Shown piece after piece: positions 21,365 through 57,279 of a stretch of 64,000 bases of DNA (positions are counted from its first letter, which is position 1; each line of letters opens with the position of its first letter). The stretch spans positions 56,956,788 through 57,020,787 of the forward strand of contig CM120640.1 in assembly GCA_051362555.1 (NCBI GenBank), written 5' to 3'. The notes below the pieces were generated by a model that saw nothing but the letters and a program-made list of their open reading frames with translations, was not told the origin of the DNA and made no database searches. Source of the DNA: Lingula anatina. Lineage: Eukaryota > Animalia > Brachiopoda. A program made the position numbers and the translations under genes.

Positions 21365-23835
21365 ATGCGGCAGGTCATCGTGTTGTTTGCCTTTTGGATA
21401 TGTGCAGTGTTCAGTGTACGGACGGTGAGTGGTCCATTTAATAATCTTAACCAAAATTGACGTTGAAAGAAATCATTTTCAATGTCCTTTTGAGAACCGA
21501 TAGAATTTTGATAATAATGCAAAGGTACAATGTAGAAAAATTTTAAACTCCAATGTAAACTTCGACTTTATCAGAAACGCTTAAAAAGATTCTTTTCTTC
21601 TATATATATATTTAACAAGTGAAAACAAATAAAATATTGAAAAACGAAAACAAAGGGATTCAATTGAAAATTTACTTTTCCAAATGTAAAAATCTAACGA
21701 CCATTTGGTAGATATTTTGTTCAGATGCGACATTTTTTGCAAAGTTGTGGTTGTGTCTTATCTATAAACGTTATTATTCTATAATTGCCATTGTATCTAT
21801 ACGCCTTTCACACGCTGGGACACCGTAGGTGGACCATTGTTTAATAGGGTGTTGACTAGTATTGCGTCTTACTGAATTTGGACCTGCTGATCTATCACTA
21901 ATGTAGTATTGAGAGAAACAAATATGATTGCTTTTTTCAGTTTTTTCTAATTTGCTGTTCAGATAATTACACTTTTAAATACGAGAAAAATGTTTCGTTA
22001 AACTGTAATCTGTTAATCACAAACGTTCACTGTACAAATATTTCTTAACTTCAAGCAAAACTACACTTATGACATATCAGCGGTGTTTTAAAATTCAAAT
22101 TCACTTTGACTTATGTTGTCAAGAAAACTATTTCCTTGCATAAGCACACGATTTAGCTTTATCATCCCATTAGTGGAATTAATAGCAAACATGTTGCTAC
22201 AGTGTTTGGTAAAAATGGGGATTCCTACCATTTTTTCACTAAAGCCATTAATCCAAATGAGGTGAACACGGCTATACATTTTCATCGTACTTTTCAAAAA
22301 TCTTGTTTCAGATAAAATGACAAATATAATTTTTATATAACCTCTAATTACACCTTTACGTCAAGTGGCATCTTTTGTAAAATATGAAATTATTTAAGGA
22401 AGGCTGTGTTTATAATTCAATCGGTATTGAACGCAATGAAGTAATCAGATTTATGTAGTTACCGGTTTACACAACGCACCCTACGGTGAATGATAATAAT
22501 GCATCTTATTGGCTTTTAGCGGCCGCCTATGGTCAGTTTTGAACTGAATGGAGAACCCTACTACATCTACGTCGAGAAAGACAGAGCACACAAACTGATG
22601 GTCATGCCAGAGACTAAAGATTGTGACAGGACCATTATTTTCCACGATTTTCTGGGGGTAAGGTAAAAGATGGGCTGGTGGCCAATGTGCCGGTGGTTTA
22701 TCTCTGGGATTTGTAAACAGTGTTTGACTGAACGGTCAGAAAAAAAGGGGGGGGCAGAAAGAATTTATATTGATGACGATATCTGATCCAATAACGGCCA
22801 CGTACTAACGTACTAACAAGCAATATGCAAAGTATTTACCTACTAGGACTAAGTAAAACGTGAACTATCTGACCTAAACAAAAGATTTGACTACAAGCAA
22901 TGTTTTTTTTCTTTCAGAACAAGACTATTTATAAAGACGTCACAGCGGAAACTTGTTTCGTTTCCCCATTATATAGGGACGTCGTAGACAAAGTAGCGGT
23001 TATTTTTAAGGCAGTAACTCCGCAATATGTGAGTAATTAAGTGCAATTTTTACATAATAGAATTTGTTAGACATTTGTTCATGGCGGTGAAATCATGCCC
23101 GCAGGAAATAAAATGATGGTTCAGTGCTGAGTCAAATTTTAGCTAGGACTCAAAAATGGTTCTATTTCTTAAAGATAAACGTAAGCTACATTAAAAGAGA
23201 ATAACCGCACCAAAAACTGATTTCATACGCAGATTGAGTTGGGATGCTAGGTGCGCCTCTCACCGGGAGCCATCAGCATTAGACATCAGAGAGTCATGAA
23301 ATGTGGCACGTAAATTGTTTCTTTTATACTTGGAATCTTGATTTGTGTAATTTACTATCGTAACACACATTGTTCTGTCTATCAAAACAGCATGAAACTG
23401 TACAAAATTAGTAAGCATTAGGGTTTTGATGGAAATCTTGTAAAAAAAAAATTGGGTTTAGTGTTGTAAATGGAAGTTTCAAATTCCGCCCTGTTTAATA
23501 AACTATCCAGACATTTAAGAAAGAGAGGGAGAGAGAGTGGTGATTGTACTCAAAATAAAATATCACACTCCATTTTTCATTAGGCAGTGGAAAATACTCC
23601 CGCAATAATTCTACTGAGGGAAAGAAGGATGGATGCCAATGAAATAACTTCTCTGGGAAGGATGGCTTTCCTATGTAGAAACTATGCCACATTTTGGGTT
23701 CGACGGAATACTCCAAAGGAAGGGATACGTTTCTCCGAGAAAGGCATTGACACCGATTCCGGGATTGTCATCGGAAGAGTTTTTGCCGAAACCGCAAATG
23801 TTCCACTCAGATTTGCCAGTAGCTGGACCTCCTGA
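21365..23835 (+). CDS. Secreted BRICHOS-domain protein A, 186 aa
   Basis: Exons 21365-21424 (signal MRQVIVLFAFWICAVFSVRT), 22520-22657 (..KDCDRTIIFHDFLG), 22918-23028 (NKTIYKDVTAETCFVSPLYRDVVDK..) and 23584-23835 (..SLGRMAFLCRNYATFWVRR..GIVIGRVFAET..). All introns are phase 0 GT-AG. It has the BRICHOS hallmarks HDF (conserved Asp), YK..C-F and LG....C...T.W. Confidence 0.9.
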
Positions 23836-25022
23836 AGCTTTTATTCGGAACGCCTAATGATTTTATAACAGAGACTATGAAGACACGCAACACATGAGGA
23901 GTTGAATTTCTTTGCCCAAGCTACGTCTTTCTGATCGCCTACGCGTGAAACTTATATTTATGAACAATTTTATGTTTTGCTGCACACTAACTGTGGCAGA
24001 AAATGGGATCTAAACTATTTTGTGAGACGATATCTCTGTCTCTTCCGCTGGCAAATGTCTGTGATATAAGAACATTTAAAAAGAAACAAATAATAAATCT
24101 TTTCTTTTGAAAAATCAAATGGAGAGCAGACTTCACATAGCCTCTCGCTCAAAAAGCGGTTAAGTTTTGCTTAAGTTCCGCTTTTTTTACAGAGATCACT
24201 TCAAATAATGGTGTTAAAGTTTTTTGTATTTATTTCAATTATTTGTAATACATGTAGTCTTACCAAATAATCTTGGTCATTTAAAACTGTGCGGTAATAA
24301 TACCCAATGGTCCATTGTAGGATGTTTAGATAGCCCCAAGAAAATAGTATTACATGTAAAAGTTAAACATATTCTTGTCGGTCATTGACGGTATTTTGAC
24401 AAACGTACAGCACACTATTTTTATTTCTTTTATTCGTTGCACGTCTCTGCTGGTTTCACACGTTTCTGACTTGTATAAGGAACACAGAGAGGAACATCAC
24501 ATCAAATTAACAATTAACCAGCAGAGAATAATTTGAAATGGCACCTTCTTTGATCCATGGATTTCAAAATTAGCTTTTGAACTTTATATTGTTGTCTCTG
24601 ATAGCGACATGCAACGGGAATGTTAGTTTTACTATGACCATTATTTACTGGTTCACGTGCACAATGACAGAAAAACGAAGTAAAAAAGGTCAAAGCATAC
24701 TGAGAAAACCACGCCTCATATCCGGTCATGTGAATACAGCCTTTGTTTCTGAGCCAAGACAAGTTGGCACTAATTTCCTAAGGTAATTAAATGAGAAGAA
24801 ACATAAACAGAGTTTTTAGTTATGTCAGCAGTAGCAGTAATAAATGTTATCTGAACAATATAAGATTCATTTATACTACGTTTAATCTTAGAATCCGGTG
24901 TCGTAGCATTCGTACGTAATCTAAATTGTAGAATAAAATGTAATTTTTTTAATTGTTTATTTCGCAAGTTTAGGCCACCAGCCTATATTACATTACAGTT
25001 ACAGGAGTCAAATTTTTTCATT

Positions 25023-25445
25023 CTATATATCCGTAAGCTTGAAGCACTCATACACATACACTGACAAGTTTGTTAAGAGAGTAGCATCTTCAGATTTCAT
25101 GAGCTTGTTAAAGTTGAATACGTTTGCCTGAATGCTGGTGTAACGTGATCTAGAGAGTCCCCCATGATAGAGGGTCCGCTTCCCATTCATTTGTACAGGT
25201 AAGCCTCGCCCTAGATTTTGATCCACTTAGGTCAGGCTGACCCTAACCATTAAAATTAAATGGAGGTGTGACACGGACCCTCAGTTTCGTAACACTGGGA
25301 ATATATGCATGTATATGGCTCTATAGCCATTATACCATGGACACACAAGCACGAAATGGTACTCGTCCTCTATATGTGCTTCTTTATAAGCATTGCAGCA
25401 ATAATTACAACATCTAAATTCAGGATCTATGGGGCCATTCAGAAT
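25023..25445 (-). mobile_element. 3' fragment of a non-LTR retrotransposon (RTE-X/L2-like C-terminal zinc knuckle), decayed
   Basis: The minus strand encodes CNYCC..IEDEYHFVLVCPWYNGYR and, after an insertion, VFNFNKLMKSEDATLLTNLSVYVYECF, the typical ORF2 end of such LINEs. Confidence 0.75.
25139..25294. mobile_element. Short solo-LTR-like insertion within the LINE fragment
   Basis: 156 bp with termini TGTAACG...CGTAACA, flanked on both sides by CTGG (4-bp target-site duplication), with an internal ATTAAA. Confidence 0.65.
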
Positions 25446-27322
25446 AGAAGATCCGAGTATCAACTGGTCCAAGGCTCAAATATGGCTGACCCTACAAAAA
25501 GGAAGACCGCTTAATCCTGTAATGGTCTCTCCGCCTCTCACACGCCTCCCCTCCCCTATAACCTTCCCTAAGTCAAATATCTGTTTACTAGGAAATGGCG
25601 AATGGTGATTGGTAGAAGAGTGCCAAATTGCTAAATTGCTGATGCAATCTCTGCGGAATAAGTGTGTTGTGATATGCCAAAAGTCTCAACTAAAACAATT
25701 ACAAGATGTACATTGCCAGTAGAAAGATGAATCTCGCCTCGCTGATTTTGTCAGTGATAAGAGGTTTTGCAAACTACAAGTAAGAAAGCATTTAAATTAC
25801 ATTATGCAATCGTTTTCGAAGAGAGAGGACAATAACGACCACATAGAGCTACACCTAATTATTTAAGATACTGTGTACTTTAATTGTATGATACGTTTGT
25901 AAACTAATACAGGCCTACTGCAATGGAAAGGCAGCTATTCTGAACATTAAAAAAACATTTGCCCAGATTTTGAAGGCCAGTAACATAAAAAATGGATGCA
26001 GGGTCTTGCAAAAAAGGGGGGGGGAGGGACCAAGGATAATAGCTGTTTGCCTCGTTTCGCTCAAGGACAATTGCAGTTTTACTGTGTGGGACAAATTGTT
26101 TGGCCTTCGCCTCGTTTCGCTTTTATTGCTGAATGGGGGCGGGGGTATTGCCGCAGAAAATAAATTGGGGAGTGTACGCTGAGCTGGCCACGCTCATTAT
26201 CAACAGAAACATGTTCGCTTCAGAAAAAAAATTCAGCGATATCTTTTAACACTGTTATACTATGTGCACATTTTTGAAGAAACTGCTAAAAGAATCAATA
26301 AACCAGTCTCAAACTTTGCCGAGAAACCAATCTGCTTCACTTACGGAAACCATCGACATCAAAAGATTAGAACCTTTTTGTATCGTTGCTGTGCTTCATA
26401 ATACTTCTTCCTTATGCCTTTTACGATTTTCTTTTAATCCCAGTCTGGCACTCCAAGGTTTGTTTACGCGGTAAACTAAAGTGTGCAAAATTGAAGATAC
26501 ATTAGTTAACGAAGTTGAGCATATTTATGTCAAGAATTTAAGCGAAAATCGATAAAGTTTATTAAGAACTAACGAAAAAAATAGGTCAACTGTTCTGTTT
26601 TTTAATGAATGAAAGAAATGAACATAAAGTGAAAAGTGTTAAAATCCTTTACACAGGTGCATCTCGCGACAGTTGCCCTTCTCTTTTTTTCTGATTAAGT
26701 TGCAAGTGGTTATTTAAAGAAAATGACCGATAAGTGTCCTTGATAATCAAACGTAACCGCGAATGAACTCACCATTGACACTGAGAGTGTAGTCGATGGA
26801 CATTTGACCTCTGGTAACAGCTTACAATAACACTTCAAGCATTTGATGCTTAATCATTACAGCAGTCTATTTGCAACTAGGGTGAAAAATGGAATAAAAA
26901 CGAACGTGTCTATTTTAAAATACTGGCACTTAGCAACGACTGCAGTGTGGCAACCTTTTCCCTTGTTTTGATATGGGCACAAAAATGCATAAGTAGATAT
27001 CCAGATAGGCTTTTTTATTTCCCATGAAAGTTAAAGGGGTTTTCGCGTAATTCTACTCGGTGCTTTCGAATTTTGTTAAACGGTGTATTTGATTTATTTA
27101 AATATTTCATCACTCCCATTTTAAAAAGTTTTGCGTAAAAGTTCAAAAACCAAAACATACATACAGATTTCTTCTGACAGTGCGTTATTTGTGAAAGAAA
27201 CACATTCTAGTCACAATCGTGCACCTATCAATGCAATGGTTGTGTTTTGCTCGAACATATTCATAAAGGACTGGTTTTATCATCACACATTTGTAGCTAC
27301 ATGTATATGCTTAGATGTATTA

Positions 27323-27609
27323 GATCGCATTCACAACGAGTTGAGCCAGGCTTTACAAATCCTGGGGACTAAATATGGCGGTCGTACATGAATCTTTTAA
27401 TAGTCTCTCCGCCTCTCACACGCCTCCCCACACGTCGTCCCTGCGGGGGGACAGTCATTAAATCTCGGCTCCATTGGGACGACACATGGGGAGGCGTGTG
27501 AGAGGCGGAGAGACTATTAAAAGATTAGGCGGTTTTTCTTTCATGTACGTCCGCCATATTTAGTCCCCAGGATTTGTAAAGCCTGGCTCAACTCGTTGTG
27601 AATGCGATC
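27323..27609. mobile_element. Near-perfect palindromic MITE (PIF/Harbinger, Tourist-like)
   Basis: ~115-bp inverted arms GATCGCATTCACAACGAG...CTCGTTGTGAATGCGATC flanked by TTA on both sides. A partial relative lies at ~25478-25555. Confidence 0.9.
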
Positions 27610-30413
27610 TTACACTATTTCTTATTAGATTTTGCCTGGTAACGTGCAGGTGTAAGTCCTCCAATGTCTTGAGCCAAATATCGCCGTTTTTTTATCCAAC
27701 CCATGATTAAACCATGTTGTAGGTTAATGTTTGGGTACAAGTGCTGATGCATTAAAAAAGAAAAATAAATAAAAAAGAAAAGAATGTATTTGTTTGCTCA
27801 AAACGTGGGGATAGTATTTTTTTCCGCTCTCGGTTTGCTCTTCACATCAGTCTCTAGTTTTCACGTGAAAAGTACTTTTTAAAACGTGTTCAATAATAAC
27901 TTTTTACCTTGAAACGTAAAAACGACGTGAAAAGAGATGAAAATCTCTGAATGAAAAACGCATTTGGAGTCAAATTGAACAAGTCGTACATCATCGATAT
28001 CCGAACACACCCCGACTCGTCAACCCCCGCCACCCGGTTTATGGTTGGTTTGACGATAAAACAACAGGAGATTCAGTTAAGAAATATCGTCTAAGTATGT
28101 AGGTCACTCAAGTTCGTCGTTCTCATGATTAAAGTTGCGTATGACAGGCACTCATCTCGTCTCAAATATTATACAAATAAAATGTGTCTTCCTGTTGGCG
28201 TCATTATTTCTCCTTGAATGTCCGATAATCGATACAATAAGGCTTCTAAGTGCTCACACATAAATAGAATGATAGATGAGAAGCTTTAAACGATTCAAGT
28301 GAATCTTATCTTTGCATGCTTTAAACCTATGAGTTTACGGCAGGACGTGTATTTTGCGCAGAGTCAGTTTCTGTTGATTTACTTGGGTCGTATCTACAGA
28401 ACTAACAGAAGATATCGTTGTCATTTCTCTTTTTTCTTTTTAATTCATGTATTTATCATCATTATCTTTTGTCTAAACAAACAGCGCCATTAGAGGAAAT
28501 TTTTTTAGTTTATAAAAATATTTCTAAAAATTAAAGGTAGATAAGTGACCGAAAAGGGCACGAGCTGAGCCAAAGACGAAAAAGAAAACGGGTTTAACAG
28601 CACATAAGATGACATATTTGACACTTATCTATGTTGAGAGAGTCAAAGCCTTAAAAAATAATAAGTTAAAAATGCCCTTTCTTGAATATTCGGGGGCGGG
28701 GTGGGTGGGGCATCCGTGCATTCTCCAAAAATTTCCGCCAGACAACATTTCTTTTATCAAACTCCTCGTGATTTATGCTAGGCATTGAAATTAAAATTCT
28801 GCTGATTGTCAAAAGAAGGACAATGAATATCATAGTTTACACAAAGGCAGTGATTACTACGAACCCTGGTAGTGCGCGCCACAAACTATTTGATCTTCAT
28901 CACACCTTTATCTACATTTCGCAAATCCACTTACTCATACTCAATAACTAACTTAAGCAGCTTATGCACTTTCTAATTGACCGCAAATTCAGGACATAAA
29001 AACCTTGGAAATTGTAGAGTTTGGTTTTTATATCTTTTTGCTGAATCCACATTTCAGTTTCATCATTTGGTAAAACTAGTTACTCATCTTCTGCTTGAAT
29101 TTGAGGTGAATTTCTTCAAGTTAATGTGAACCTGAAGTATCAGTGCCATGTGCTATAAGAATGATTGTCTAGGAAAGCTACATTTAGTTCTTTTTTCACA
29201 ACTTCATGGTAAACCACACCTAAAACTTTATTTGCCAAAAAAAAAAAAAAAATAATAAAAATAATAATAATAATAAATAAATAAATAAAAAACGTATCTG
29301 AACGCCGGGTCTCAGACAAGAATTTTACTGCAACAGGTGGTAGGCGTGTGTAGAATTCTCCCCTCCCGCCGAGATTTGAGTGCTTTGGCTAAGGCTGTGC
29401 TCCGTTACGTGGCCTAGGTTGTTGCTTCCGCCTAGGCTAGTTTAGTACAATGTAGAAACGTGTTCAGATAGGGAAGTGTGGAGTGAACATCAAACGATCT
29501 AAATGACAATTGTAATCGTCTACGTGGTTATACTGTATATACAGTATCTATATATGGTATGGGCGTGGCGTCACTCGAACGTTTACCTTGCCGACCGTTG
29601 TGCTCAGACTGTTTTCTTAGAGCATAATAAATAAAACTTCTTTTTGCTAAGTCAGGATACGTTTTTCTTGTCTGCGCGGTTTGAAGAAAATTTAGTCACA
29701 CAAGAATTTTGATTTTATTGAGTAATAGCGAAAACGATAGAGACACTACAGTGCACTAACCTCGCAGCAAACATTCTTCTGTTATTCAAAAACCATCTTC
29801 ATTATAATCGATTATGTGTAAAACTGCCATCAATAATTATCATATATATTACGATTAACGGTAAATAAAAGTGACAATAAGCCAAAAGGATGACTTTTAA
29901 CCACAGTCCAATTTTCCCATGACAGTTTGATCGCAAGGACGGTTTATTCGCGTGACACATTGCAAAACTTGTGATGAAAATTATAGAGACGAAGCCATCA
30001 AAATTTACATTTAAACAATTTCAAATATGAACACACCATGACATAAGAAAAAAGGATTTACACGGCACCCGGCTCGCGCAGCGTAGAAAATCAACCGCAT
30101 ACCATTCGCATCCGGCGACTCATTGACAAACCTCGACATTAATTCCCTCTTGATTTTTTTCCATAATTATTCTGACATGAGGCGGCTAGTACTTAAGCGT
30201 AATCTCTAGGCGGTCTTGTGGCATTTGATCGTAACGCTCCAGGGAGAGTGTGTCCTTTAGACAGGAGATATTATTGAGAGATTGTGTTCGACGAACTTTA
30301 AAATACCTGTGGAAGACCTCGCCAACTACATATTACTGTTATTAATTGACGATCGACAGTTAAACCACCTGAATGAACTGAACACCATTCTTTGATCATT
30401 GGAGACAAATAAT

Positions 30414-31664
30414 ATGTATCAAGTAAGTAAGATGGAACCGCTTTTTGACTTTCATTAGATACCTTGGGTTCTACTTTTCTACTTTAACTGGTTGGTTTTT
30501 ATCAGTTCCTATACGTTCTAATACATGTATATTGGTGGCCCGATAATATATATATAGGCCTATATTAAATGTTAAAACTTTTTTTAGCAGGGAAATAGAA
30601 TTTCAGACTAACGGAACTGCTGTGTCGTGTTTGCTTTTATTTTTATGCAACATAATTGTTATTGTTTTTTTATAATAAAGCATTGAAATATTTTAAAACA
30701 TTTGCCCTTAAATGAAGGGAAAGCTATCACGCACTTCACAAACGAATATGAAATGTGTTTGTGAACATCAAGACGTCTTATAATCACATCAAATGACAAC
30801 TAATGGTATTTATGCAAAATCATTTGCTAAGTATGCAGCCAGAGTAGAAAAAACACTGAGCATAGATCTGCCTGTTTATTTGTCTATCAGCTCATTCAAG
30901 AAGTGACGAATGGCTTTCTTCTGATTCTATCATCTTAACCAAGTTAAATATCGACTGAAAATGTCAAAACCTACTAGACATGATTATTTGTAAGCGCCTT
31001 CGGTAATTAGCAACCGAACACAAAGCGATACATCACCAAGACATGTAAAGCACAAGATGTTTCATGTAGCATGCCAAAAACTTATTATAACAATTTACTA
31101 TTTTTTACTTGTCTTTAGCTCAGTGTGTTCCATTGTTTAATTTAATGTCCAAGAAAACTTTTTAAAATGCATCCGGCACAATGAAAGAATTCCTTTAACA
31201 AAAAACGTTATCCTTGGTCTGAAGTACAACACTTTATATTCATGGTTACCTGAAAATGTATTTCTTTAATTTGCTCTTTTATTTCATTCCAGAATCTAAA
31301 GTTTCAAGGTAACATTTTTGTCGTGACATTGGTCTTTGCGTTCCTGATCGGCGAAACTATTGGCGGACTTATTCAACGGCATAAACTGCACATACAGGAG
31401 CCCACGCAAATGGAAAATAAGGCAAAAGACATTTCTGATAACGATAACATGTCTCACAGGCTACGCGTCAAAAGATACGGCGAAACCGATGAGGATGACA
31501 TGTGGTCAACCCTGTGCCTAGGCCTGTGCGCGGCTGAGTGTCAAAAATACAGTGTTCGTAACATAGCATATTGCGAAAGCTCTTGTTTAGACAACATTCG
31601 TCGTGACCCTTGGTATGGTTTTGACACGTTTGCCTCGAAAGTTGAAACGTACTGCCTGAACTGA
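30414..31664 (+). CDS. Secreted six-cysteine prepropeptide P1 (eclosion-hormone-like), 126 aa
   Basis: Micro-exon ATG TAT CAA|GTAAGT (30414-30422) plus exon 31293-31664. Signal MYQNLKFQGNIFVVTLVFAFLIGETIG, a propeptide, convertase site RVKR, then CLGLCAAEC-x10-CESSC-x22-C containing FDTFA. AATAAA at 32103. Confidence 0.88.
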
Positions 31665-32567
31665 GTTTTAGTGACAGCATTGGTAGCACCATTGTTTGAC
31701 CTGTAACATGAATGTGATTGGAAATAATTGTCAATTCATTTGGGGTTATTACATTAAGATTCCAATCAAGTCATCCCATATGACCAATTGAAAAATCAAT
31801 GAAGTTGTCAGTTCCTAGAACGCAACCACGCTAAAATCATCACAGAGGATAAAAAAACGACGAAATACAGATACTGTCACTGTCAGCTCTAGGTTATTGT
31901 AGCGCCATGATGCACACCAATACAGTCTAGATATAATTTGCTGACTAACATCTGTGAAATATATGAGTTCTGGATATCTACTTAAATGTACTTTCTGTGA
32001 TATACCGTTTCTGAAACTCAGAGCGTGTCTCGATTTAGACAAAATATTTATTTGTATATATTTGATGTACAGGTAAAAATATGATGATGTTCATAAAAGT
32101 ACAATAAATTAATTAAATTGTTTTTGAAAAAGACGTTTTTGATCGGTTTAAAACAGTGCAGATTCAAATTAACTTAGTCCAAAAAATAACCAGTGAAGTT
32201 TTATTCCTCTTTGAAATGTTAAGATTCGTAGGGGAAGGTAGAGCATACGGGTAATTAAAGATGTGTTGAAACTGCCTTTATTTTGATATACGTTTAAGAT
32301 GATTCAGGTTCTTTGAGCTAAAAATACATTTTGCAATTTAGACTTATCAATGTCATCGTCAAATTGCGTTATTAATGGATGACCGTCTCGGCATGTGCAT
32401 GGAATGATGGCGTAGAAGACCATGCCTTATTAGAGTAAGAAGAATGTTACAGGAATTCAGTTCGGAGTTAGTAGGCTGTTAGATGAACGTTTACAATTAA
32501 AATAACTATAATCATCACTATATGCCACAAGTCGGGTTTTCTGTGTTACAGTGCTTACACTGGGCAA

Positions 32568-32569
<2 letters not shown>

Positions 32570-32598
<29 letters not shown>

Positions 32599-32670
32599 AC
32601 TGATTTGTGAATGAGGTCGAAAAATCGGTTGAGCACATCTCTCTCTCTTTCTCTCCTCTCTCTCTCTCTA
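32570..32670. repeat. (CA)n and imperfect (CT)n microsatellites
   Basis: Directly visible. Confidence 0.9.
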
Positions 32671-44133: not shown

Positions 44134-44511
44134 ATCACGAAGACGGCATACTGTCTAATAAATGGATAACCCATCTTGTCATATTTATTTACATATGCAG
44201 AATGTTCCTCTTACGTCATATTTGATTAAAACTGAATGGATAAATCATGACATTATCAGTCATTTGTAATTTTTATATTGTCAACTATAATGGATTAGGG
44301 AGTGGATTGGAGAGCTTCGTCCTTATTTATTTATTTTATTTTTATTTTTACACATCTCAAATAACATACGCTTTGTGTACCACGGGGAAGCATGTCATGC
44401 AAAGGTTCGATGTAAGATGTAAGATCGCATCTTACTACAAACATATAACCGCCTTGCGAATAGTTTATCATTCAACATTAGTAAACATCAATTATACTTC
44501 GAATCTCTTAA

Positions 44512-45361
44512 AGCCTCAGTCACAACCAGACCCACGAATTTTAGGATCGTACGCCCCCTGCCAATTTTGGTTGCAGTAGAATCCGTGGAGTTCGTAGAGG
44601 TAGAGGAAAGTTTGCAATGAAATGGCACAAGTCTGCCTTGCGAATCGCAGGGGCCATATGAAATGTCCTTTCAAGAAGGGACGCTAATTGCAAAGTGCGA
44701 TGACCGTGGAAATTGTACTCCTTAACTCAGTTTGTCTTGCTACAGTACCTGCTTATGTGGTACACACTCACCACTTATGAAGAGAATGCAACGCACGGCC
44801 AAAGTAGTTCCCTTTTGCGTCACTTTTGCCTCACACTTGCCTCACACGCTTGTGATGACGTACTGACCGCTTACATCAGTTTTGCCTCCTGTTCTCCCCT
44901 TTTTTCTTCCTCCTCCCTTCTTTTTTCCGTGCTCTCTAAGCTTCTTTCTCTTGCCTTTTGGAGGCATGTTAGAAGCTGAATAGTGCAAATTTTTTAAAAA
45001 AATTGTTGTACACGTTGCACAATCGACGTTAATTGTCGAGAAACGAGCGTGCGTTGTGAACACGCCTTTTATACTCCTGGCATGGAGGTGACGCATGTGC
45101 GACGCACTCCCTCCGTGCTTTCGATTTTGTCCGTAACACACGTCTCACTTGAGAAATCCTTGCGAATGGAGCAAGTTACGCTTGCGGCCTCGCTGTTCGC
45201 AGATTATTCGTAGAATATTTTAGACGTGTCCAATACCCTCCGTACGTGCTTACGGAACTCCAAATTTTGCGAGAAGGACTTGTGTGGCACGTGAAATTCT
45301 GCGCAGAATTTGGACGCAAACAGGCCGTTAAGAGCCCGCACGGTCGGTTGTGACCGAGGCT
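44512..45361. mobile_element. Non-autonomous PIF/Harbinger DNA transposon
   Basis: TIRs AGCCTCAGTCACAACC ... GGTTGTGACCGAGGCT with a TAA target duplication on both sides. The GC-rich interior has a frameshifted basic N-terminus (MPPKGKRKK..) on the minus strand. Confidence 0.8.
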
Positions 45362-48205
45362 TAAATTTTGCCTTGGTAAGCCAAAGTACGGTTAATGTGA
45401 GCAAGGTTCAATTGCAATGTCTATCTCACTGAATTACGCCATACTCTTATTTTTGTTTTTTTTCTTTAGGTTTAACTTTCATCGGATTTGCCTGAACAAA
45501 GCAAAAAAAAAAAAGAAAAAAAAAAAAGACACTTATGTTAGAACTCACTTCCGGTAATGGAAAATGAGTATCAATCTTGTTTTCGTTGTTTGATGGTTTG
45601 CCCTACGTACAGCTTTTTCTTTTCAAAGGAAATCAATAATGCGTCCACCGTATCCGCCATCCTGCGTGCAGACACCAACAGTACATCAGTCATCCTTTGC
45701 GTCTTTTAAGACATGTCAGTACGGGCGACAGTCACCAGTGACATGATGAATCGTTTATATGGTGACGATTGGCGTTTTTTTTTTTTTTTTTTCAGGAGCA
45801 CAGAATTACTCTGCCAAAATGAAAGATTTGTGAAAAAGTTGCCTGTCGGTGAGATACATTTAAGTATATGCAAAATGAAACTGGTATTTACTTGGTCTAC
45901 AATTTTGGGACAATTAACATATGAGAAATGGAGAATTGCTAACTAAGTAAAACATTCTGAAAACTATACATTTAAAGGCAGTAATAACCCCTTAGTCTAC
46001 ATCATCGAATATTTGGCTTGACAAAAAGCTTACAGAAGTGTGAAAAACTGTGTGTTAATTAGACAGACATATAAATCAATCCCTGCTTTGTTCAGTTTCT
46101 GTTGTAAAATTTACATATAATAAGGTTCAATGGTGCAATGTTTGAATATGCCCTATACCGTTTTCTGTAAGGAGATTTGGATGCTGTTATACATGTGGCT
46201 ATATTTACGTTTACAAACAGGTTTGATCCAAGATAAAATCCTTTTATCATAAAATGATCAATGGTAAGCAAACACACGTTTACAATCACTGATTTTGGAA
46301 GAATTTCAAGAATTTATCATGACAAAGGTAGGCTGGACATCGTGTCGATTTGGATGACACGCCTTCGCATGTGGCGTGATTACAAGTTATCGATCCGAGA
46401 GTGGTGTCACTAGTTGTTTATATGGTTCATGCCGGCCGGATGAGCGCAATTATAACCCTAATTGTGGTAACAGTCACTTTAATTTTACCACGCGATCCTT
46501 CTTGGTTGCATGTTAGGTAAATAAACAAAGTTTCAATAGCCATTCCAGACATAAGGATTCTAATAGCTTACCGGTATTTAGCAAAATAATATTTTTCCAA
46601 TGTCATTGCTTACGCCATGAATATCAAAATGCAGTGAAAAGTCATAAATTAAAACTTTCAAAACTGATTTTATTCCACTGAGTTTTGATTTCAAAACAGC
46701 GAGACTGTTCGTCTCTCACATAAATCCCAAAATGATTTATTATGTTTCTTCTATTTCTTCCGTGTTCGGAATTCATATTAAGATTGATTAAAAGCTACTT
46801 ATTATCAACAGGATATAGATTCGTGTAAAATAAATCTCATTTAAGTTTCTTTTAAAACGATAGCGCTTAGCCGCCGAAACACATTTGGTGAAATACGACT
46901 TAATGTTATTAACATATGTGCAGTTTATTTATGGCAGTTGTAAAGATCAAAATAGAAACAAATTGACTTAATTACTTTCAAGGCATTCCTCTTGGTCTTC
47001 CACACCAGGTAACTGACATTGAAACGTGTGAGATAAGAACTAATCTCTACTACAATTACTTTTTTCCTTCTTCTGCCAACTTTGTTTCAGAACCACTACC
47101 ATAGGCCTAGATTGTCTCACTTAGGCTGCGAATATATATGTTCATTCTATGCCTTGGCGTGGAAGGCAAACATAAACATGCTAAACAGTACAGAAACAAT
47201 TCAAATATGTGTTCCTACGTCATTCTGGTTTTCAAAAATTAAGGAAACATAAAGTTTACATTATATACTATTTTGATTTTGATAAGATTTTTGATTTATG
47301 TATAATCTATATAAACGTTATTCATACATGTACACACACGCCGCCTTCTCGCTTAACACCACTGAATTCTCTCATTACCGACCACAGCATCCATACACGC
47401 ATAACATCACGCACTGTTCACGATTGTAATTCGAATACTTAAATAATTTCGACCAAGGTTAACTTAATCTCCGGTTTCGCAACAGTACATGTACAATGTA
47501 ATAGGCCTCGTATTGCCCTAGCTATCCTTCAAATCTGTTACCAACAATCAGCGCAAAAGATGAACATGAAAAAGAAAAAGAAATACCTTACAGGAGAATC
47601 AATCACTGTTGAGATACTCACGAAAGACCACAATGACATGTAGAATCTAATGATAAAATATTATTATTACCATAATTCCTTTAAAATCGTTATGTTATTT
47701 AAGATTAATTTCCTGCTGCGTCCATTTTTCTTCCGGGAAATATATCAAACTATTTTAATCACACAAACACTTTGTGTATTTGTCATTTTTCGTTAAAAAT
47801 GCGATAAAAACCCTAGCACTAGCACAATAAATAATTAAATATATATTAGTAGTGTCGCAATACAAGATGCGATTTGTCAGAACACTTTCTCAGTAGGCTG
47901 TCTAAATTTGAGATGACGTACAGCTGAAAGTCCAGCGCCGTCGTATCACAGCTTCATGTCTGTTGTGCTCCACAACATTTATATATATATAAAATGTATC
48001 TTTCTCTGTATATATATATCCTAATATAATGCTGTCTTCAAATCAGTGTACATATATTGAATGATTCTTTCAACATCCCGAACATCTAAAGTTTAATAGA
48101 AGAGGAATTAAAGAAATGGAAAAGTTCGATTAGAATATGTCATACATTTCTTCCGATGCAGGACGCGAAGTAACCTTCCTTGCTGAGTGCGGTGCCATTT
48201 TATGT

Positions 48206-49910
48206 CTAAAGTAATGGCGGATTACAGAACCTCAGCACATTGACAGCAAACTTGTCGAACTTCCTGGAAGAAGATGTTGACCGCTGGCAGGATTTTTCAC
48301 AATACGCAATATCATAGATGGTATAAATTGAAGTACATTCGTAGCATAATCCCAGGCAAACGTCGATCATCAGTTCTTCCGAAAAGATGGAGCGTTTTGT
48401 GATTCTCCGAGCCGGATGAAATGAGTCAATGGTCCTTAAATTGGGCTCTATTTCGTATGGCATTTTCTGTATCCGATCTCTTTGTTGTGGGATAACCCTA
48501 GAGACTGCTACTAACATTAAGTTCAGCAACACCAACAAAGTAACGATGTATTTCCAAGTTTTCCTACACTGAAAAATAAAAAAAGACAATTACTTAATCA
48601 TTCCTTGATAAGGTCAATTCCATTTTGTCAACCAAACAAATAATAAATGTAGAAATAAAAAACATAGCTATTCAATTATTCTTTCAAGAAATAAGCATAA
48701 AACAAAGTTTCTCCTCTGCTCATAACTTTTCTTAATTTACAGCGATACTACTACCTTCCAATGCATAGAAAATGCAACAAATGATTGTACTTGTTAACGG
48801 GATCAACTTTGGTGCATAAGTATATTCCCATTCTGAGCGATTTTAAAGTATGATGATACACAAAAAATACAAAGCAAACAAGACGTATCGTTTGTCCGTG
48901 GAAGAGACAATAGGAAATAAACCACCTCGATTACTTTTTACTGTTTCACTGATCAGTTACTGAGTGGATGCATTTATCGTGACTAATCAAGCTAACTTGG
49001 ACCTCTAGGTCGTCCCTGCGGCACTAAATCATTATTAAAAGCTAATCATCTAAATATGGCCAGAAATTGCTATTTCATATGAATAGTACACTGAAAAGTA
49101 TAATTTGTTAAACGGTCTTTGATTCCGTAATGGTGCACAGGTGGCGGGATAGGCGACGGACCAATCCTTCATGGGAATTTCATCACAATTTAAGTCTGAT
49201 CCACGCGTTTCTCGACATCAAATAGCGCTGTGAACTAACCCCCCTGGGCTCATAAATTGTCTATTAATTTTGTGAGCGTGTGTTTTGAAACATCAAAAAA
49301 AGTCCTTTGGCATTCTTTGCATTCATTCACAAACCACACTCCTAGTCGCAGCGGAAAAGCTGTAGGAGAGGACGGTAAACCAAGACATATCAGTTTAATG
49401 AAGAAAAACGAAAACATAAAAAGGATTCATTCTTTAGTTTAAATCTGCCCAGTACATTATCAATCTATAAATAAATATTAAGATTAATTACAATCACTAC
49501 TTAATTAGTAAACTCATGATGATATCTTTTATATACATGAGAAATATACTTGTAGAAGGTGAATTATCAAAATGCCATAATTGTTTTATTAACAGCGTGA
49601 ATTCTTTTAAAGATAAAGCGCGTCTGTAAGAGAGCAAGCATAATAGCATCTTACATGTACGTATCAAAATACATTTGATGGGAGTAAATATGAGCCAACC
49701 TGTCTTGCAATATACTGTAAATCGTACATTTTATTTTTAAATGATTCAGTCTCATTATTCTTTAATTCGAAGAAACTGTCTTGAAGAAATGACTTAGTAG
49801 ATAACATCTGTATTAGATCAGCACTTGATAAGATTCTCTCTTTAGATCTTAAACATTTGGTAAACACGGTATATGGTAAGCAAATAGTAATGATATCTTA
49901 CCTGAAACAT
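48206..49910 (-). CDS. Secreted six-cysteine prepropeptide P3 (eclosion-hormone-like), 123 aa
   Basis: Micro-exon ATG TTT CAG|GTAAG (49910-49902) plus exon 48568-48206. Signal MFQCRKTWKYIVTLLVLLNLMLVAVS, a propeptide, RRITKR, then CLGLCYEC-x11-CEKSC-x20-C containing FDKFA. Confidence 0.88.
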
Positions 49911-51049
49911 GGTTATTGGACAAATCCTATCAAAGCATTAAAAGAAACAAAAGCCACTGATGACTCTCTTATCTTCTAGTTTCTCTGGGAAATAGATTAC
50001 TATTTTCACCGTAACGCTGTTCTCTCCTTTCTTGCTGGAATCCTTCTGGTCTGTAATCTAGCATGTGTTCATTTTACATACCAAAGTCTAGAGCGGTAAT
50101 TATACTAAAATACAGGGGGCATGCCATATAGATTAATAAAATGTTGGTTGACGACAGCTGTCAGTCACTCTTTTCCATTTGTTAATTTTGGTTGCAGCAC
50201 AGTTAGAGCAACCGCAAAGACGAAGGCAATTTATGATGACGTGATGCTGTAAAGTTCACCACAGAGGCAACATTAATAAAGCTGGGGAGGGGGGGGGGGG
50301 GTGATACACAAGCCAACAACAACGTCGGCTTGTCTTGCTCTATTCCCGATGTTTTTATCTGTGAAAGTTCATCTTCTTTTCTATTCACTTAATTAAATGC
50401 GCGATTTTCTTCAGAGATAAGATGATAAATTGCAGCCCTGTGATTTGTACGAGTTCGCTGGAGCTATCTGTGATTGATATGATTAAGAATATGACTGCTC
50501 TCTATTATCTGTGGAACAAAGACGAGAGAGACACGAGAAAGCCATCAAATTTACCGTAATCTTAGGAAAAATTACATGTAAGTGGAGAGAGTGAGATAAT
50601 AATAAGTAGTATATCAGCTCCCCCCTCCTTCAAATCATTCCCAATTTCTTTTGCAATAAGCGTAAAGAATAAAACTGAGAAGATATTTCACGTCTTAGAA
50701 AATAGTTTTAAAATTTCTGTTTTGTAAAATAATTTATTTTCGTTTGAAAAAAACTTAATGTAGGATCACATCTGTCCCGTCCTCATTACCGCCATTTGAA
50801 TTCTGCTCCAAGGGCGTAAATAACTCACGATTTCTTAAATAACGGATATTATATTTGACCGCAATATATCACATTTAATTTGAACATCTGCGTTTCGTTA
50901 AATGGTGCGGGTGCCTTTTGACACGACGCAATGAAGCTTATGTTTGGTAGCCATCTACATCAATTGTGCTAGCTGTTCACATCTCTTCGTGTTTATTGGA
51001 GACGATTCTTAAATGTGGTGAACAGTACGTTAAACAGCATTCTTTAATA

Positions 51050-52505
51050 TAGTCCCTCTGAACAGAAGTGTGTACATGTATGAAATAAAAAAGGAAAAGC
51101 CACATAATTCCAATAATATTGTTAATCTTTATTTGTAAATGTTTTCAGCCATAGAAGCTCTTCATAATAACAGTTACTAAAACGACAGCCATTGTCACCG
51201 CAACAAGGGTAAAAATTCTGTTAACTGGTAACTGTGCTAGTACATGTGTAACTTATGTTTTTATAGTTACTGTGGGGCACTCACTTGACAGCGACTACGA
51301 AATTCAGAGGGTTAGATAAGAGAGGGTTAGACATCATTAAAACCAAACAGGCAAATTGGCAAGAAGAAGTGGTGTTAATACGCTTTCCTCGTAGAAAACG
51401 TTTCATGAAATGAAGAAAGTTGACTGCAACATTTAACTAGAAAAGTTCAAACCATGTTTCTGAGTTTACCATCAGAAGACGTCCGCACAACCGCCGTTAT
51501 TTTGACAGGGTTTTTGTTAAGAGACCAGTGATCACTGCCAGGAACCGTCTTCGTAGAGCCAGCTGGTATACCGGAACTTTGACATTGGCACCAGTCAAAA
51601 ACTGGGCAGCGATACTGTTGTCAGATGAAAGCAGGTTAAGGGTTGTCAGAATTTATAGACGCGTAAGGGTTTGGAGAACAGCTGGTAAGAAGTATCTTCC
51701 CAATTTTCTGCCTCTGGTCGACAGAACGCACCCCTCGTAAGTCATAGCATGGGATGTATTGGCCACTTCGCTGTAGGCGAACTGGCAGTGCTCAACGAAC
51801 CCATGCAATTAATACAGACCCACGCATCCAGGTTCTGGAACGGAACCCAAGGAGAGACCAGTTTCATTAGCTCTGTATGTATCAATTTAAATTATTGTTT
51901 TTCTTTTTATCAAGAGCTTATAAAATATGTGGGTATTACCTCCAATATTTCTGTGACTGTCAGTCATCATCATCAGGGAGTAAATGACTAGGGTCATTTC
52001 ACCTGCATTAGGGACATTGACCAACCATTTCTGTTCCAGCATGATAATGCTACTCCACGCACAGCCAATGCAACAGTAGGCTGGTTATATACGAACCAGA
52101 TCGACCCCCCCTCCCCCCATGACCAGCTATATTAGAACCTCATTAATAATGTGTGGGGTATCCTCGGAAATGGATAACTGAGAGATAACAGAAATGATCT
52201 CATGATAACTTTGCACCGTATGTGGAAAGTTACTACTTCACAAACATTACATAATTGTTTGGGTCCACGCAAAGACGTATCAGGTGCGTCCCCCAATCCT
52301 GAGGATATACTGTACAAAATACCCAAAAAACCAAAAAGTGGCTTTGATTTTTTACTGTGGTTAGCTTATTCGTTGTTTGTACAATATGTAAATTTTTGAG
52401 AAAATTCCTTTTCGAAGTTGAATAAAGAGCATTTGTTCATGACATGATTTTTTGTATCACTCTGCGCATTGCGTTAGGGTTGACACTTTTGGCTAGGGGA
52501 GTATA
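51050..52505 (+). mobile_element. Decayed Tc1-like transposon
   Basis: Frameshifted transposase fragments WAAILLSDESR..RVRVWR, WGCIG..AVGELAV, FLFQHDNATPRTA and NVWGILG. The probable right TIR is ACACTTTTGGCTAGGGGAGTATA; the left end is uncertain. Confidence 0.8.
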
Positions 52506-54388
52506 CTTCCTACATTGTACAGGCTAACGAATTTTTTTTAATCGCCAAGAGTATGACAAAATTGTAAAGGCTACGATTTCATCCACCGCCCGTAGCACGG
52601 ACGCCGCACGAGAACGTAAAGAGATAAACGGACATCGCATGGTAAATGTAATCTCGGCTTAACCATATGATGACATATGTTCCTAATCTCGTATCACAAC
52701 AATTCTTTTTTTTGTTTGTTATGTTGGTTCTAACCATTGCTTTTCAAAGTAAACGTTTCAGGTTTGGAGTTTGACGGCGACTATTGATTATATGGGATCC
52801 TGTTATCAATTGTTCCAAAATCGGGAAGAAAAATTTTGATAAATTGAGTAATTGTGGCTCCGAGGCTTGGGTGTTATAAAAACGGAATTTTATCCTCTTT
52901 AATTCAACGTTGCTCTTAGATTTCTTTAATTCGTATGCTTTTTACTTTTTGAATGTCTAAGAATGTATATGAATACTTTTGTCTTCTAAGATGACATTCT
53001 AATTCCAGAAGTATTTGCTTTTGTGTTTTTCTCAGTGACTACGTTGCAAATGGTTCTGGCCAAATTATAAGGTATATTCCTTTAAGTCTTTTAAAATATA
53101 TGAAGGGTGGCACTATTCAAACTCTCAATTATAACTGATGTGTATCTGTACTGTAGCTTTAGAATATACATCGGTAAATTTTCTCCTTGTTTGATGTCAA
53201 TGAAAGAAAACACTGTTGTACAGTTTAAAATATTGAATCATCTAAATTATTAGCGTGGATTTTCCTTTTCTTTCTCGTTGGATGGCTTACCATTTTTTCC
53301 TGAAAAACTAGTACACAGTAGTCCTGTTACTTAAGCACAAAGGAAAATACGAACTGTTCAGTGCGAGAAACATACAAACTGTACATTTTCTCAAACTGTT
53401 TTTCAGACAGACAAAATTGATAAATCAATCAATGCTTAGCTCATAATAGTTTTCATGCCATATGGTTCCTTAATAACCATAAACTAACAATGCTTTTAAT
53501 AGTTTTTCATACCACGTTTTTAATCTTTGGTATTTGAATTATATATACTAACAATACCTTTATAACAAAATTATCATGAGTTACCATCATTTCTATACTC
53601 CTTGAAAAGAAAATGTATGGTTTATGCTAGGTTCCCAAGGGTTTCCTGGAACATTCAGAGAAATGACTTTCAGTTTCCAGTTTAGATCATATCACCCTGA
53701 AGATCCATTGCAGCATCTACATATTTGTACATGTGGCTGGTAATCGGCTGTTCATAAAATGCGTATGCTTTAATACAAGCATCTCAACAATATTTTAAAA
53801 ACATTGGTATTTATGTCTAAAGGTCACAGTGCCCTTTTATTAGAGCTTCAACAAGTGATGGCGCATTACTTTTATTGCAAAAGAAAATTGATTCAAAAAG
53901 GTGATCGCAAAACTAAATTTTCCTCTGCAAATCCAAACAGGCCTAGTTATTTACAACCACTGCAAAAAATCATCCACCACGTGATTTAAGAATTGTTTGC
54001 TGAAATTTAACAACTACGCACAAACAATCCTGGTTTGTGATCAAACAATAGTACATCAACCCCATGGGAGTCTTTTCACTTTTGATTAATTTCACGTAAT
54101 TTGAATGGCATCTCACTCGTTCATTAAGCACTTAAAACCCAAGAGGCATTTTACGTCTTTTTAAATGAAATATATCTTTGTAGAAAACAATTTTAATAAT
54201 TACGTCATCCCCTTAATCTGGAAAATTACAATTAAGCATTTACCCTTCAGTATAGTACTTCGGTCGACAATTTTATGTTCTTCTTTGAAAAATAGCGATA
54301 TATGGGCGTCTACCACGTTCCACATTTAGATTTCGAAAGATTGCATTGTGGAGACAGGAATGAAATATTTGAGAGCGTTTACTACCAC

Positions 54389-55056
54389 CACCCTGAGCTT
54401 CAGAGCTAACTTGACACTAACCTTTTCACTGTAGCCTATCTCCATCGTGTCAAGTAACCTCTGACGAAAATAGTTTGACCTAGTTTATATAAGCCAATCA
54501 AATCCATGTTTCAAAATTTTTCACCAAAGTTTGGTGAAAACGCTGATTGGTTGACCGTCAATCGGCAATCCTCGGCTGATTCCGCAAGCTCCATACTAAC
54601 AACATAGTTATTGTCGAGTGCGGAGACATCCGAGTAGTTCCGAGTGTATTACCGTACACAAAGAAAGCAAGGCGAGTGACTACGAAAAAGAATGTGTTAA
54701 GTTATCTCTTGATTCTTTGAAAAATATGAGTAAATCGGAATTGAAACCATAGGGTCTAGCAGTTTGAGGCCCTGCATCATTATCTACTGAGAGACGATGT
54801 AATTTGCGTGCTGCCCACAGGTTACGGCAAGTCCCTGATATTCAGCCTTATCTTTGATTGGTCCGGATTTGAACAAAGCGCGCTTTGACTCGTTCGCGTT
54901 CATTGGCTAGATCGTTTAATGAGTCATTGAGTGCGGGCTTTTAAATTTGATTGGCGGGCGGCGGAGGCAATCGAATCTGGTCAGAGGTTACTTGACACGA
55001 TGAAGATAGGCTACAGTGAAGAGGTTAGTGTCAAGTTAGCTCTGAAGCTCAGGGTG
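54389..55056. mobile_element. Non-autonomous DNA transposon with long TIRs and 8-bp TSD (hAT or P superfamily)
   Basis: ~77-bp TIRs CACCCTGAGCTTCAGAGCTAACTTGACACTAACC... with few mismatches, flanked by a perfect ACTACCAC direct repeat. Confidence 0.9.
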
Positions 55057-56041
55057 ACTACCACAGACCTGCAGGACTACTTTTATGTTTACCTTAAACT
55101 TTGTGCCAGTGTCAGTAAACCAACGCAGGAACTCCTAGAAACGATTAATAATCGAGCTTTAATGTTCAACACAAAAAGATCAACATGAAAGGGGACTTAA
55201 AATAAATGCAATCATCTAGCGTACTTCCAGCAGACATCAATACATTTTCCACGGCTAATTGGTGTGGATATGCAAAACCGATGATTTATGGAAAGCAAAC
55301 TCGCTATTGATCTGTAAATGCTATACTGAAATGAAAGCCCAGACAATTTCCACTTACAGAAACAAGACCAATGACATTTTGCTGATCGTTTGGATGTTCA
55401 CAAAGTTACGTGATTGAATTATGCTAAAGTAATAAAGCTCTCTATTCCTAGACAACCATTTAGCATAGATGGCATATCATGGTCAAGTCGTTCTCAGACA
55501 ATCATTTAGAACATCCGACCTGGTCAAGTCACCCTTACTTTGAAAACATCTGCCGTAAATACATGCTTTTGAATTGCCTTTTTAACATGCTTGTGTGTGA
55601 ATGCCAAAGCTATAATGAAAATATTACATTTGCAATGCCAAGATAACAATTTTTGTATCTATTTCATCAGATCATCATTGCAAAAATTACGAGAATACAG
55701 CACTGACATTTTTCTGGAGAAGCTAAAAGGCGTTTTATGTACGAAATTCGATGTGTTTGACGTATTGTTCCGTAGGGTAACCGCAACAACAAAGCCATGT
55801 AAGCTGGTCGTACCATAATACGCAGTTGTAAAATCTTTTTCGCGAATTTAGCTACACCATATCAAAAAGCAACATGCGGCTCTTAGAACTGATACTAAGA
55901 ACTCGTTTTTTGATGAATGCACATCTGAACATACAGAGACTGTGTATGTTAAGTATTCAGCGTTTTTTTCTTTTTCTTTTTTCACTGTCAGTGTACTCTA
56001 GCTTCTGTTTTACTATCTGATAGAATACGTAAGAGTTCAAA

Positions 56042-57279
56042 CTACTCTTCCTTGATTTGCGCATAAACCTTCCCTATCTTAATACTTGGTACCACGTCTC
56101 TCGTAGATCTCTGGGTAGAGGTTAAATGGTCATCTCTTTTCATCCAGAGAGCAGGGTATGTTCCACATATTTTGGCCCGTGGGCCCAGCGACTTCACCTG
56201 CAGGTCACTTAGCACAGTTTCTGGATGGAGTACAACAGACGGAGTATCTTCTCTCTGAAATTGAAATTTGAAAACTTTCTCTTAATCTTTTCTGTCCTTT
56301 GTAACGTTCATAACAATTGCAATGGGTCCTCTTACTCAATTACACACAAATCGTAAAAACGCCAGTTACCTTTGTTTTTGGCATTTATGAAGGGAACATT
56401 TTGATGTGTATTGAACATTGCAATTTGTTTATGCTTACATTCGAACGTTCTGTGGCTTTGAAAAGGATGACCGTCTTGTCTAACACATCGTCATAGAAAG
56501 GAGTGATGAAGCACGTAGTAGCTGTGATGTCCTTGTAAATAGTAATATTCTGGAAATATAAAGCTCTTTTAAATGACAGTAGCTAGGTTTAGGCAGACGA
56601 GGCACTTGTCCCGTCTGGAGTTTTCTCATATTTATCATTCGAATAAAGCTGTAAGGGTCGTTTGCCTCCCCACTCGTCTACCAATATTACTACATTGCAA
56701 ACCAGATCAGACAGTCAAATGACCCTCGGTTACTTTTGACATGACTTGTTTATGAAGTTAAAATTTATAATATTTGGGAGAGAGCAGGCCAAAAAATCAA
56801 AAGCGTTTTATATTTAATCAGCTGTTCACACACTTGGTGATTATATAGAGTCTACAGCTTGTTATCATTTGCATCACAATAAAACATTAACTTACCTTCG
56901 TAAAATCATGAACTATAATAGTTCTGTCACAAAGCGTCGTTTGTGGAGTGACCATCATTTTGTACGTGCCCTTTTCAAATATGGGAACAAGTATATTCCT
57001 GCCATTTAGTTCGATTCGCACGCCAGGGGCCTATAATTACAAGATATGTCATTATGAAATGCATTTTTTTCAGATTTTTATTATCATTACTATCATTTAT
57101 TTATTCTACTATATTTCGCTGATAGAAACTTGGGGCATTGCAGTTTTAAAGTGAAAGATATTCTGTATATATAATACTACTAATGGAATAGATTTACCTA
57201 TACACACGATTCAACTTACATAGAACGCCTTAACACACGCAAGCACGCAAACACTCAGCCAGCATATAATCTTCTGCAT
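56042..57279 (-). CDS. Secreted BRICHOS-domain protein C, 172 aa
   Basis: Minus-strand exons 57279-57220 (MQKIICWLSVCVLACVKAFY), 57030-56896 (..LCDRTIIVHDFTK), 56549-56439 (NITIYKDITATTCFITPFYDDVLDK..) and 56254-56042 (..SLGPRAKICGTYPALWMKR..RSTRDVVPSIKIGKVYAQIKEE*). All introns are phase 0 GT-AG. The gene is entirely absent from the ORF track. Confidence 0.9.

Follow-up and report, generated by a model that had tools for sequence, protein, structure and literature searches.

Does the close linkage of two gene families mean that their products act together, or have neighbouring genes simply been copied together? This question is raised by a 64,000-nucleotide stretch of the genome of the brachiopod Lingula anatina (GenBank assembly GCA_051362555.1, contig CM120640.1, positions 56,956,788 to 57,020,787 of the forward strand; here called the window), in which three BRICHOS-like genes (A, B and C) are interleaved with three genes for six-cysteine prepropeptides resembling eclosion hormone (EH), named P1, P2 and P3. 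A first-pass annotation, which placed the source among molluscs and annelids instead of brachiopods, had read the cluster as a linked chaperone/carrier and peptide module. In this study, we conclude that the two kinds of product are probably independent of each other and that they are encoded in a neighbourhood in which BRICHOS and EH-like genes were likely duplicated together in the distant past.

Six intact genes and their duplication

Gene models spliced by coordinates gave six intact genes in the order A> P1> P2> B> <P3 <C, as originally annotated. All 12 introns are GT-AG and in phase 0, and every frame is open, so that the reported integrity of the six reading frames holds. Positions in the window are as follows.

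Exons 21365-21424, 22520-22657, 22918-23028 and 23584-23835, plus strand: gene A, BRICHOS protein of 186 amino acids, with Cys 55, 79 and 134 after the signal region
Exons 30414-30422 and 31293-31664, plus strand: gene P1, six-Cys prepropeptide of 126 amino acids, RVKR site, Cys spacing 3-3-10-3-22
Exons 37653-37670 and 38732-39052, plus strand: gene P2, six-Cys prepropeptide of 112 amino acids, RR site, Cys spacing 3-2-10-3-21
Exons 42093-42152, 42814-42954, 43420 (or 43417)-43530 and 43921-44133, plus strand: gene B, BRICHOS protein of 174/175 amino acids, two Cys only
Exons 49910-49902 and 48568-48206, minus strand: gene P3, six-Cys prepropeptide of 123 amino acids, KR site, Cys spacing 3-2-11-3-20
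Exons 57279-57220, 57030-56896, 56549-56439 and 56254-56042, minus strand: gene C, BRICHOS protein of 172 amino acids, Cys 54, 78 and 132, RSTR followed by an 18-residue tail

The BRICHOS genes share a plan of four exons (60, 135-141, 111 and 213-252 nt), and the prepropeptide genes have two exons each; the micro-exon of P1 was placed by similarity to P3, its junction not being seen in reads. The distance from stop to ATG is 6579 nt between A and P1 and 6132 nt between C and P3, in agreement with the gaps of about 6.6 and 6.1 kb noted before. Protein searches returned the same sequence as A (XP_013408181.1) and as C (XP_013408182.1, LOC106172129) from L. anatina, together with a record that differs from P2 at residue 20 only (XP_013408184.1, LOC106172132), and no record for B, P1 or P3. 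A tblastn search of the window with the six models and two outgroup proteins revealed no further copy of either family, and two metagenome scans found no relative. A 200-residue form of A with 14 additional N-terminal residues exists as record P0004, and exon 3 of B has tandem AG acceptors (43414-43419), of which the one 3 nt upstream yields the 175-residue form, differing by one Lys.

The history of this arrangement was explored by an event search that allowed tandem duplications, inverted duplications and inversions at equal costs, starting with a single BRICHOS gene and a single peptide gene. To reach the observed signed order, four events are needed if one duplication may include both families and six if it may not, and every history of up to five events contains at least one mixed BRICHOS and peptide duplication. 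Joint duplication is therefore the most economical route to the gene order, and the proposed co-duplication is supported as likely. The simplest course would be at least one segmental duplication that carried BRICHOS and peptide genes together, followed by inversion. In DNA comparisons between the duplicated units only coding exons align, with no shared non-coding sequence, and third positions of exon 3 are near saturation (12-16 identical of 37), which indicates that the duplications are old. Co-duplication does not prove interaction, since a duplication will take in genes 6 kb apart whether or not their products interact.

No consistent pairing between the two families

If each BRICHOS gene had a cognate peptide, the two families should share one history. 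The first-pass annotation saw the same relationship in both, namely outer genes grouped against the inner one, and pointed to shared motifs that are all present: A and C have in common the sequence CDRT and, at residue 66/67, an N-x-T sequon, and P1 and P3 have in common CLGLC, IAYCE.SC, KR and a micro-exon encoding M-[YF]-Q. Outgroups show some of the same motifs, DRTII.HD being found in a Lineus longissimus protein (XP_064636304.1, here P0005), and CLGLC and YC..SC in the Logan protein P0006. The motifs said to unite the outer genes of each family are thus ancestral states. Furthermore, GLCYEC is common to P2 and P3 and GFDTFA to P2 and P1, exclusive shared sites number 12/13/14 among the peptide pairs, and protein identities are nearly even in the peptides (P1-P2 28%, P1-P3 30%, P2-P3 30%) and range from 30% (B-C) through 35% (A-B) to 38% (A-C) in the BRICHOS proteins. 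The parallel relationship is thus not confirmed.

The trees gave no congruence for A-P1, C-P3 and B-P2 either; with one distant outgroup per family (Lineus and P0006), they are weak tests. Across 18 alignment and model variants of the BRICHOS tree, A+C was never the best grouping (A+B in 8, B+C in 10) and fell below 0.05 in the approximately unbiased (AU) test in 7. B has the longest ingroup branch. For the peptide quartet, no topology was rejected in any of six variants. Only 6 of the 43 shortest duplication histories combine A+C with P1+P3. An A+B grouping, obtained from a single tree (AU 0.031 against A+C), was discarded as not stable in view of the 18 variants, and the sole tree result that we retain is that A+C is not favoured.

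Transcript reads across the cluster

Raw reads from six of nine available L. anatina runs were inspected, with 6-30% of each run read, at very low depth and from unspecified tissues; X1, X4, X7 and X9 were examined on positions 20800-39800, and X1, X2, X5 and X7 on 37600-57500 at looser matching. A, P1 and P3 are transcribed. The junction between exons 1 and 2 of A was spliced in three reads of X1, and the micro-exon junction of P3 (48568/49902) in six reads of X5 and X7; no splice junction was listed for B, C or P2. In X1, A reached a depth of 0.2-1.4 without any P1 read, and in X7 and X9, P1 (reads on exon 2) reached 0.9-1.5 with A at 0.7 or less. X4 had reads of neither gene, and the P2 exon-2 bin was empty in X1, X4, X7 and X9. 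P3 was read at 2.6-3.3 in X5 and X7 and at about 0 in X1 and X2. Over X1, X2, X5 and X7, exon bins of C stayed at or below 0.4 (0.7 in the bin that includes its 3' flank), and B showed trace reads in X7 only (0.2 in one bin). Co-expression, a check suggested at the outset, thus finds little backing in these thin reads, which lean against tight co-expression of the two families given A without P1 in X1 and P3 with little C in X5 and X7. Strand-specific X5 reads also extend on the minus strand from the P3 stop codon for about 2 kb (46232-48205), in the direction of the convergent gene B, and likely mark a long 3' untranslated region.

Secreted-type proteins with a BRICHOS domain

The BRICHOS identity claimed for A, B and C is well supported by several sequence comparisons. 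Pfam BRICHOS (PF04089) matches A (E 4.2e-4, 20.9 bits) and C (E 6.6e-5, 23.5 bits), both under the cut-off of 25, and a profile of A and C matches the ITM2B structure chain 8rnu (E 4.3e-5), with the Asp of an HDF motif aligned with that of ITM2B. In the ESM Atlas, C adjoins gastrokine clusters (0.92-0.93), and its model lies near ITM2, OAF and BRICHOS models (TM about 0.6). B was assigned by its 30-35% identity and identical exon phases. According to PMC9714404, the family features a conserved Cys pair in strand 4 and helix 2 and a conserved Asp; the pair is found at residues 79/134 (A), 79/135 (B) and 78/132 (C), and the HDF Asp is also present. The only outside homologue returned for the BRICHOS genes was the Lineus protein P0005, which scores over the Pfam cut-off. 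Despite the record name keratin type II-like, it clearly belongs to the BRICHOS family, and it has a furin site and a tail rich in Gly and Ser.

All three proteins begin with a hydrophobic segment (best 11-residue hydropathy on a simple scale 2.9, 1.9 and 2.7 for A, B and C, at residues 4-5) and end in a tail of 42, 27 and 18 residues, respectively, behind a basic site (RR, RRK and RSTR; RTKR in the Lineus homologue). The tails contain 33-44% V/I/F/T/Y, have net charges of 0, +1 and 0 and lack Cys. A and C carry a third, unpaired Cys within the CDRT motif, a place where B and the Lineus protein have none. From this make-up we infer secreted-type BRICHOS proteins closest to gastrokines. BRICHOS domains keep their own C-terminal peptide in a groove until cleavage (PMC9714404). 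By analogy, A, B and C would be secreted with the domain holding its own hydrophobic tail, which may form a beta-hairpin, until a convertase cuts the basic site.

Peptides resembling eclosion hormone

In P1 to P3, a hydrophobic N-terminal stretch and a pro-region precede a KR or RR site, which is followed by an acidic peptide of 61-65 residues with six Cys (net charge -6, -3 and -1, respectively), with an F-D-x-F-A motif before the last Cys. Cleavage at KR/RR would release helical peptides with three disulfides, and the model of mature P3 is a confident all-helical bundle (pLDDT 90). A second dibasic site lies between Cys5 and Cys6 in P1 (residues 106-107) and P3 (105-106) and is missing from P2; a cut there would yield a two-chain, disulfide-linked peptide.

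The likeness to EH claimed in the first-pass annotation stood for the layout and the first five Cys. The EH family has six conserved Cys (PMC6660194), the number found in each mature peptide, and its spacing from C1 to C5 (x3, x2, x10-13, x3) fits P2 and P3, while P1 has x3 between C2 and C3, as P0006 does. It did not stand for the sixth: the C5-C6 spacer is 20-22 residues in P1 to P3 and 16 in P0006, against 8-18 in the EH entries counted (8-10 in arthropod and hemichordate entries; 14, 15 and 18 in three echinoderm entries of PMC6660194). Pfam Eclosion (PF04736) matched P3 only, over profile positions 8-39 (E 0.005, 16.9 bits, cut-off 25), with no match for P1 or P2. Because of the misplaced sixth Cys and the lack of a significant alignment, we call the peptides EH-like and not EH, a label that is weak but reasonable. 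Their layout comes nearest to that of echinoderm EH-type precursors. A search of 1.84 billion proteins with the peptide profile yielded two matches, P2 itself and P0006 (E 1e-3; RRKR, CLGLC, Cys spacing 3-3-10-3-16, DDFA), and no EH; the family thus exists outside the Lingula locus. Searches of the Protein Data Bank (PDB) gave no match with the profile and none at E 0.001 for the P3 model with Foldseek. VIA-align placed the P3 model among generic helical bundles (best Z 5.5), with no EH or crustacean hyperglycaemic hormone (CHH) among the 50 matches listed, and an ESM Atlas search with P2 gave no usable match. When profiles of the BRICHOS and peptide families were compared, no homology emerged (probability 1%), so that by this test they are not halves of a split gene.

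For molluscs, annelids, nemerteans and phoronids, a 2019 moulting-pathway survey in which Lingula was screened (PMC6660194) reports the EH ligand. It gives the receptor for Brachiopoda as well, and its available text lists no ligand for brachiopods; the name Lingula is absent from the available portion of its EH data set (supplement 3). In the supplement of PMC8557429, as far as available, neither CLGLC nor GLCYEC occurs, and the first 19 of 22 'eclosion' places are arthropod. The EH receptor is of the membrane guanylyl cyclase type (PMC13311285), and the released peptides may act as hormones through such a receptor. Whether P1 to P3 are ligands of the brachiopod EH receptor, of an echinoderm-like long-spacer type not seen among the lophotrochozoan entries examined, is about evenly balanced. 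A possible but doubtful alternative, independent of the linkage, denies them homology with EH and makes them a family of their own, of helical, disulfide-bonded peptides for defence or pheromone signalling whose Cys pattern is convergent. The sub-threshold Pfam match of P3 alone, the absence of EH from the large profile search, the rapid divergence to about 30% identity and the C2-C3 spacing of 3 in P1 and P0006 would fit such a family. Typical antimicrobial peptides are cationic, unlike the acidic mature P1 to P3. Layout and spacing that adjoin echinoderm and hemichordate entries accepted as EH-type also speak against it, as does the presence of the EH receptor in brachiopods (PMC6660194).

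Interaction, co-regulation or shared history

We consider it very unlikely that the locus encodes a two-component system, with the BRICHOS proteins each acting in trans as chaperone or carrier of a bound P peptide and with linkage serving to hold the pairs together. The likely joint duplication, the secreted-type character of both families, the retention of all six genes, the reads of A together with P1 in X7 and X9 and the unpaired Cys of A and C, as in gastrokine-2 (PMC2632736), would agree with such a system. Against it stand the BRICHOS trees and the few histories that combine A+C with P1+P3, the peptide trees not being decisive; six-Cys peptides have no free Cys, unlike TFF1, the BRICHOS groove has a client in cis in the form of its own tail, P3 is predicted to be all-helical, and A was read without P1 in X1. 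The module claim thus lacks positive evidence. A complex prediction for C (residues 21-172) with mature P3 gave a best score of 0.07 against a mark of 0.34, but as it was made without alignments for one of nine pairings, with controls not folded, it is evidence neither way. The extended idea of a two-gene cassette, in which a tail-less BRICHOS protein carries an EH-like hormone in trans and the peptides are the missing brachiopod EH ligand, is likewise improbable; it would provide the first BRICHOS partner for a neuropeptide. A module without binding, with linkage selected because common enhancers drive both families in a single secretory epithelium or gland (of mucus, gut or mantle), would account for the long retention of the interleaved order and for the X7 reads, in which P1 and P3 both occur beside traces of A, B and C; we regard it as unlikely, as X1 has A only, X5 has P3 and little C, and no non-coding sequence is common to the units. 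Pure chance, with each family duplicated separately and shuffled by inversions, is also unlikely: six events suffice, transposon remnants and inverted repeats lie within the cluster and the trees yield no pairing, but this route takes two events more than the joint one, and both outer pairs run from BRICHOS gene to peptide gene at similar spacing.

Independent products in an anciently co-duplicated neighbourhood thus remain our preferred interpretation, because of the lack of congruent trees, the even Cys count of the peptides, the reads of A without P1 in X1 and those of P3 with little C. Several points weigh against it. All duplicates of both families are intact and linked after deep divergence, and selection on linkage would give the same picture; the odd Cys of A and C would need a partner; A and P1 reads do co-occur in X7 and X9, in data of very low depth and from unspecified tissues, in which B, C and P2 are barely seen. 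The event count comes from a toy parsimony model with equal costs. The proposed tail hairpin has to be squared with tails that lack Cys and with a model of C that is unusable (pLDDT 36). The assignment to EH is burdened by a match under the Pfam cut-off for P3, none for P1 or P2 and a C5-C6 spacer outside the 8-18 range.

Other genes and repeats in the window

The following features lie in and around the cluster, all on the plus strand unless noted otherwise.

1145-1378: exon probably belonging to a branched-chain aminotransferase gene, matching aminotransferase class IV weakly (E 0.007)
8458-11220: several long frames that look coding, of 113, 90 and 251 amino acids (the third rich in Ser, Thr and Pro), none with a Pfam match below E 0.04
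15628-15909: exon of Aph-1, a gamma-secretase subunit (Pfam E 1e-11), about 5.5 kb upstream of A and usable as a synteny anchor
51441-51737 and 62827-63156: Tc1/mariner transposase remnants (HTH_Tnp_Tc3_2, E 9e-4; DDE_3, E 0.005), one of them between P3 and C
27317-27615, 35950-36142 and 54389-55056, no strand assigned: inverted-repeat elements resembling miniature inverted-repeat transposable elements, which draw most RNA reads of the region

Significance

A literature search found no paper that combines BRICHOS and eclosion hormone and no description of the locus, although subscription papers and preprint supplements outside the search may list the peptides. Hits for Lingula with BRICHOS were irrelevant, those for eclosion hormone with Lingula anatina were unrelated mentions, and a term search of the Lingula genome paper supplements PMC13121700 and PMC4595640 had no matches. 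Taken singly, the components belong to established types. Within the reach of these searches, novelty lies in the interleaved arrangement and in the brachiopod's long-spacer form of EH-like peptide. P1 to P3 are concrete, synthesisable candidates for the ligand of the brachiopod EH receptor and resemble an insect moulting hormone. If confirmed as such, they would show that the EH type with a long spacer and a pro-region is not confined to echinoderms. Should the linkage be functional, it would provide a natural client in trans for BRICHOS chaperones; if it is not, the locus neatly illustrates how hitch-hiking duplication can mimic a gene module.

Relation to known systems

With 172-186 residues, A, B and C are gastrokine-sized, and like the gastrokines GKN1 and GKN2 and like ITM2B/BRI2 they combine a hydrophobic N terminus, a BRICHOS domain with Asp and Cys pair, a basic site and a short tail; A and C share the odd Cys with GKN2. 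They differ from gastrokines and ITM2B in tails that lack Cys and in Pfam scores under the cut-off. ITM2B has a type II anchor where A, B and C have a putative signal peptide directly at the N terminus, so that the RefSeq name ITM2B, as given to A, should be read as a label of similarity. The pair of GKN2 and TFF1, invoked as a precedent, likewise joins a BRICHOS protein with an odd Cys to a small disulfide-rich secreted peptide, but that link needs an unpaired Cys on both partners, TFF1 supplying a seventh, free one (PMC2632736). P1 to P3 are six-Cys, predicted helical and not trefoils, and an odd Cys occurs only in A and C.

Annelid BRICHOS antimicrobial precursors carry a cationic, disulfide-bonded C-terminal hairpin, which the Cys-free tails of A, B and C, with net charges of 0 to +1, do not match. 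Alvinellacin and arenicin of annelids are lophotrochozoan secreted BRICHOS precursors that occur in tandem duplicates (PMC5431198). In those precursors chaperone and peptide form one protein, whereas in Lingula the Cys-rich peptides are separate genes.

Among EH peptides, arthropod members (PF04736) share the first five Cys with P1 to P3, and have a C5-C6 spacer of about 10 and a helix after C6. Lophotrochozoan EH entries examined in PMC6660194 either combine eight Cys with a DDGP motif or contain EH domains in tandem, and P1 to P3 show neither arrangement; mollusc and phoronid entries share Y-[ND]-x-x-x-C before C4 with P2 and P3, more narrowly written as Y-[ND]-[LM]-x-x-C. Echinoderm and hemichordate EH-type entries differ by the F-D-x-F-A motif before the last Cys of P1 to P3 and by the x3 between C2 and C3 of P1, and in the echinoderm entries available from supplement 3 of PMC6660194 a spacer of 14-18 leads to a final Cys near the C terminus (20-22 in P1 to P3). 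It is with these entries, judged by eye from Cys spacing and not by an alignment score, that P1 to P3 appear to share a signal peptide, a pro-region, a dibasic site and the pattern C-x3-C-x2-C-x10/11-C-x3-C.

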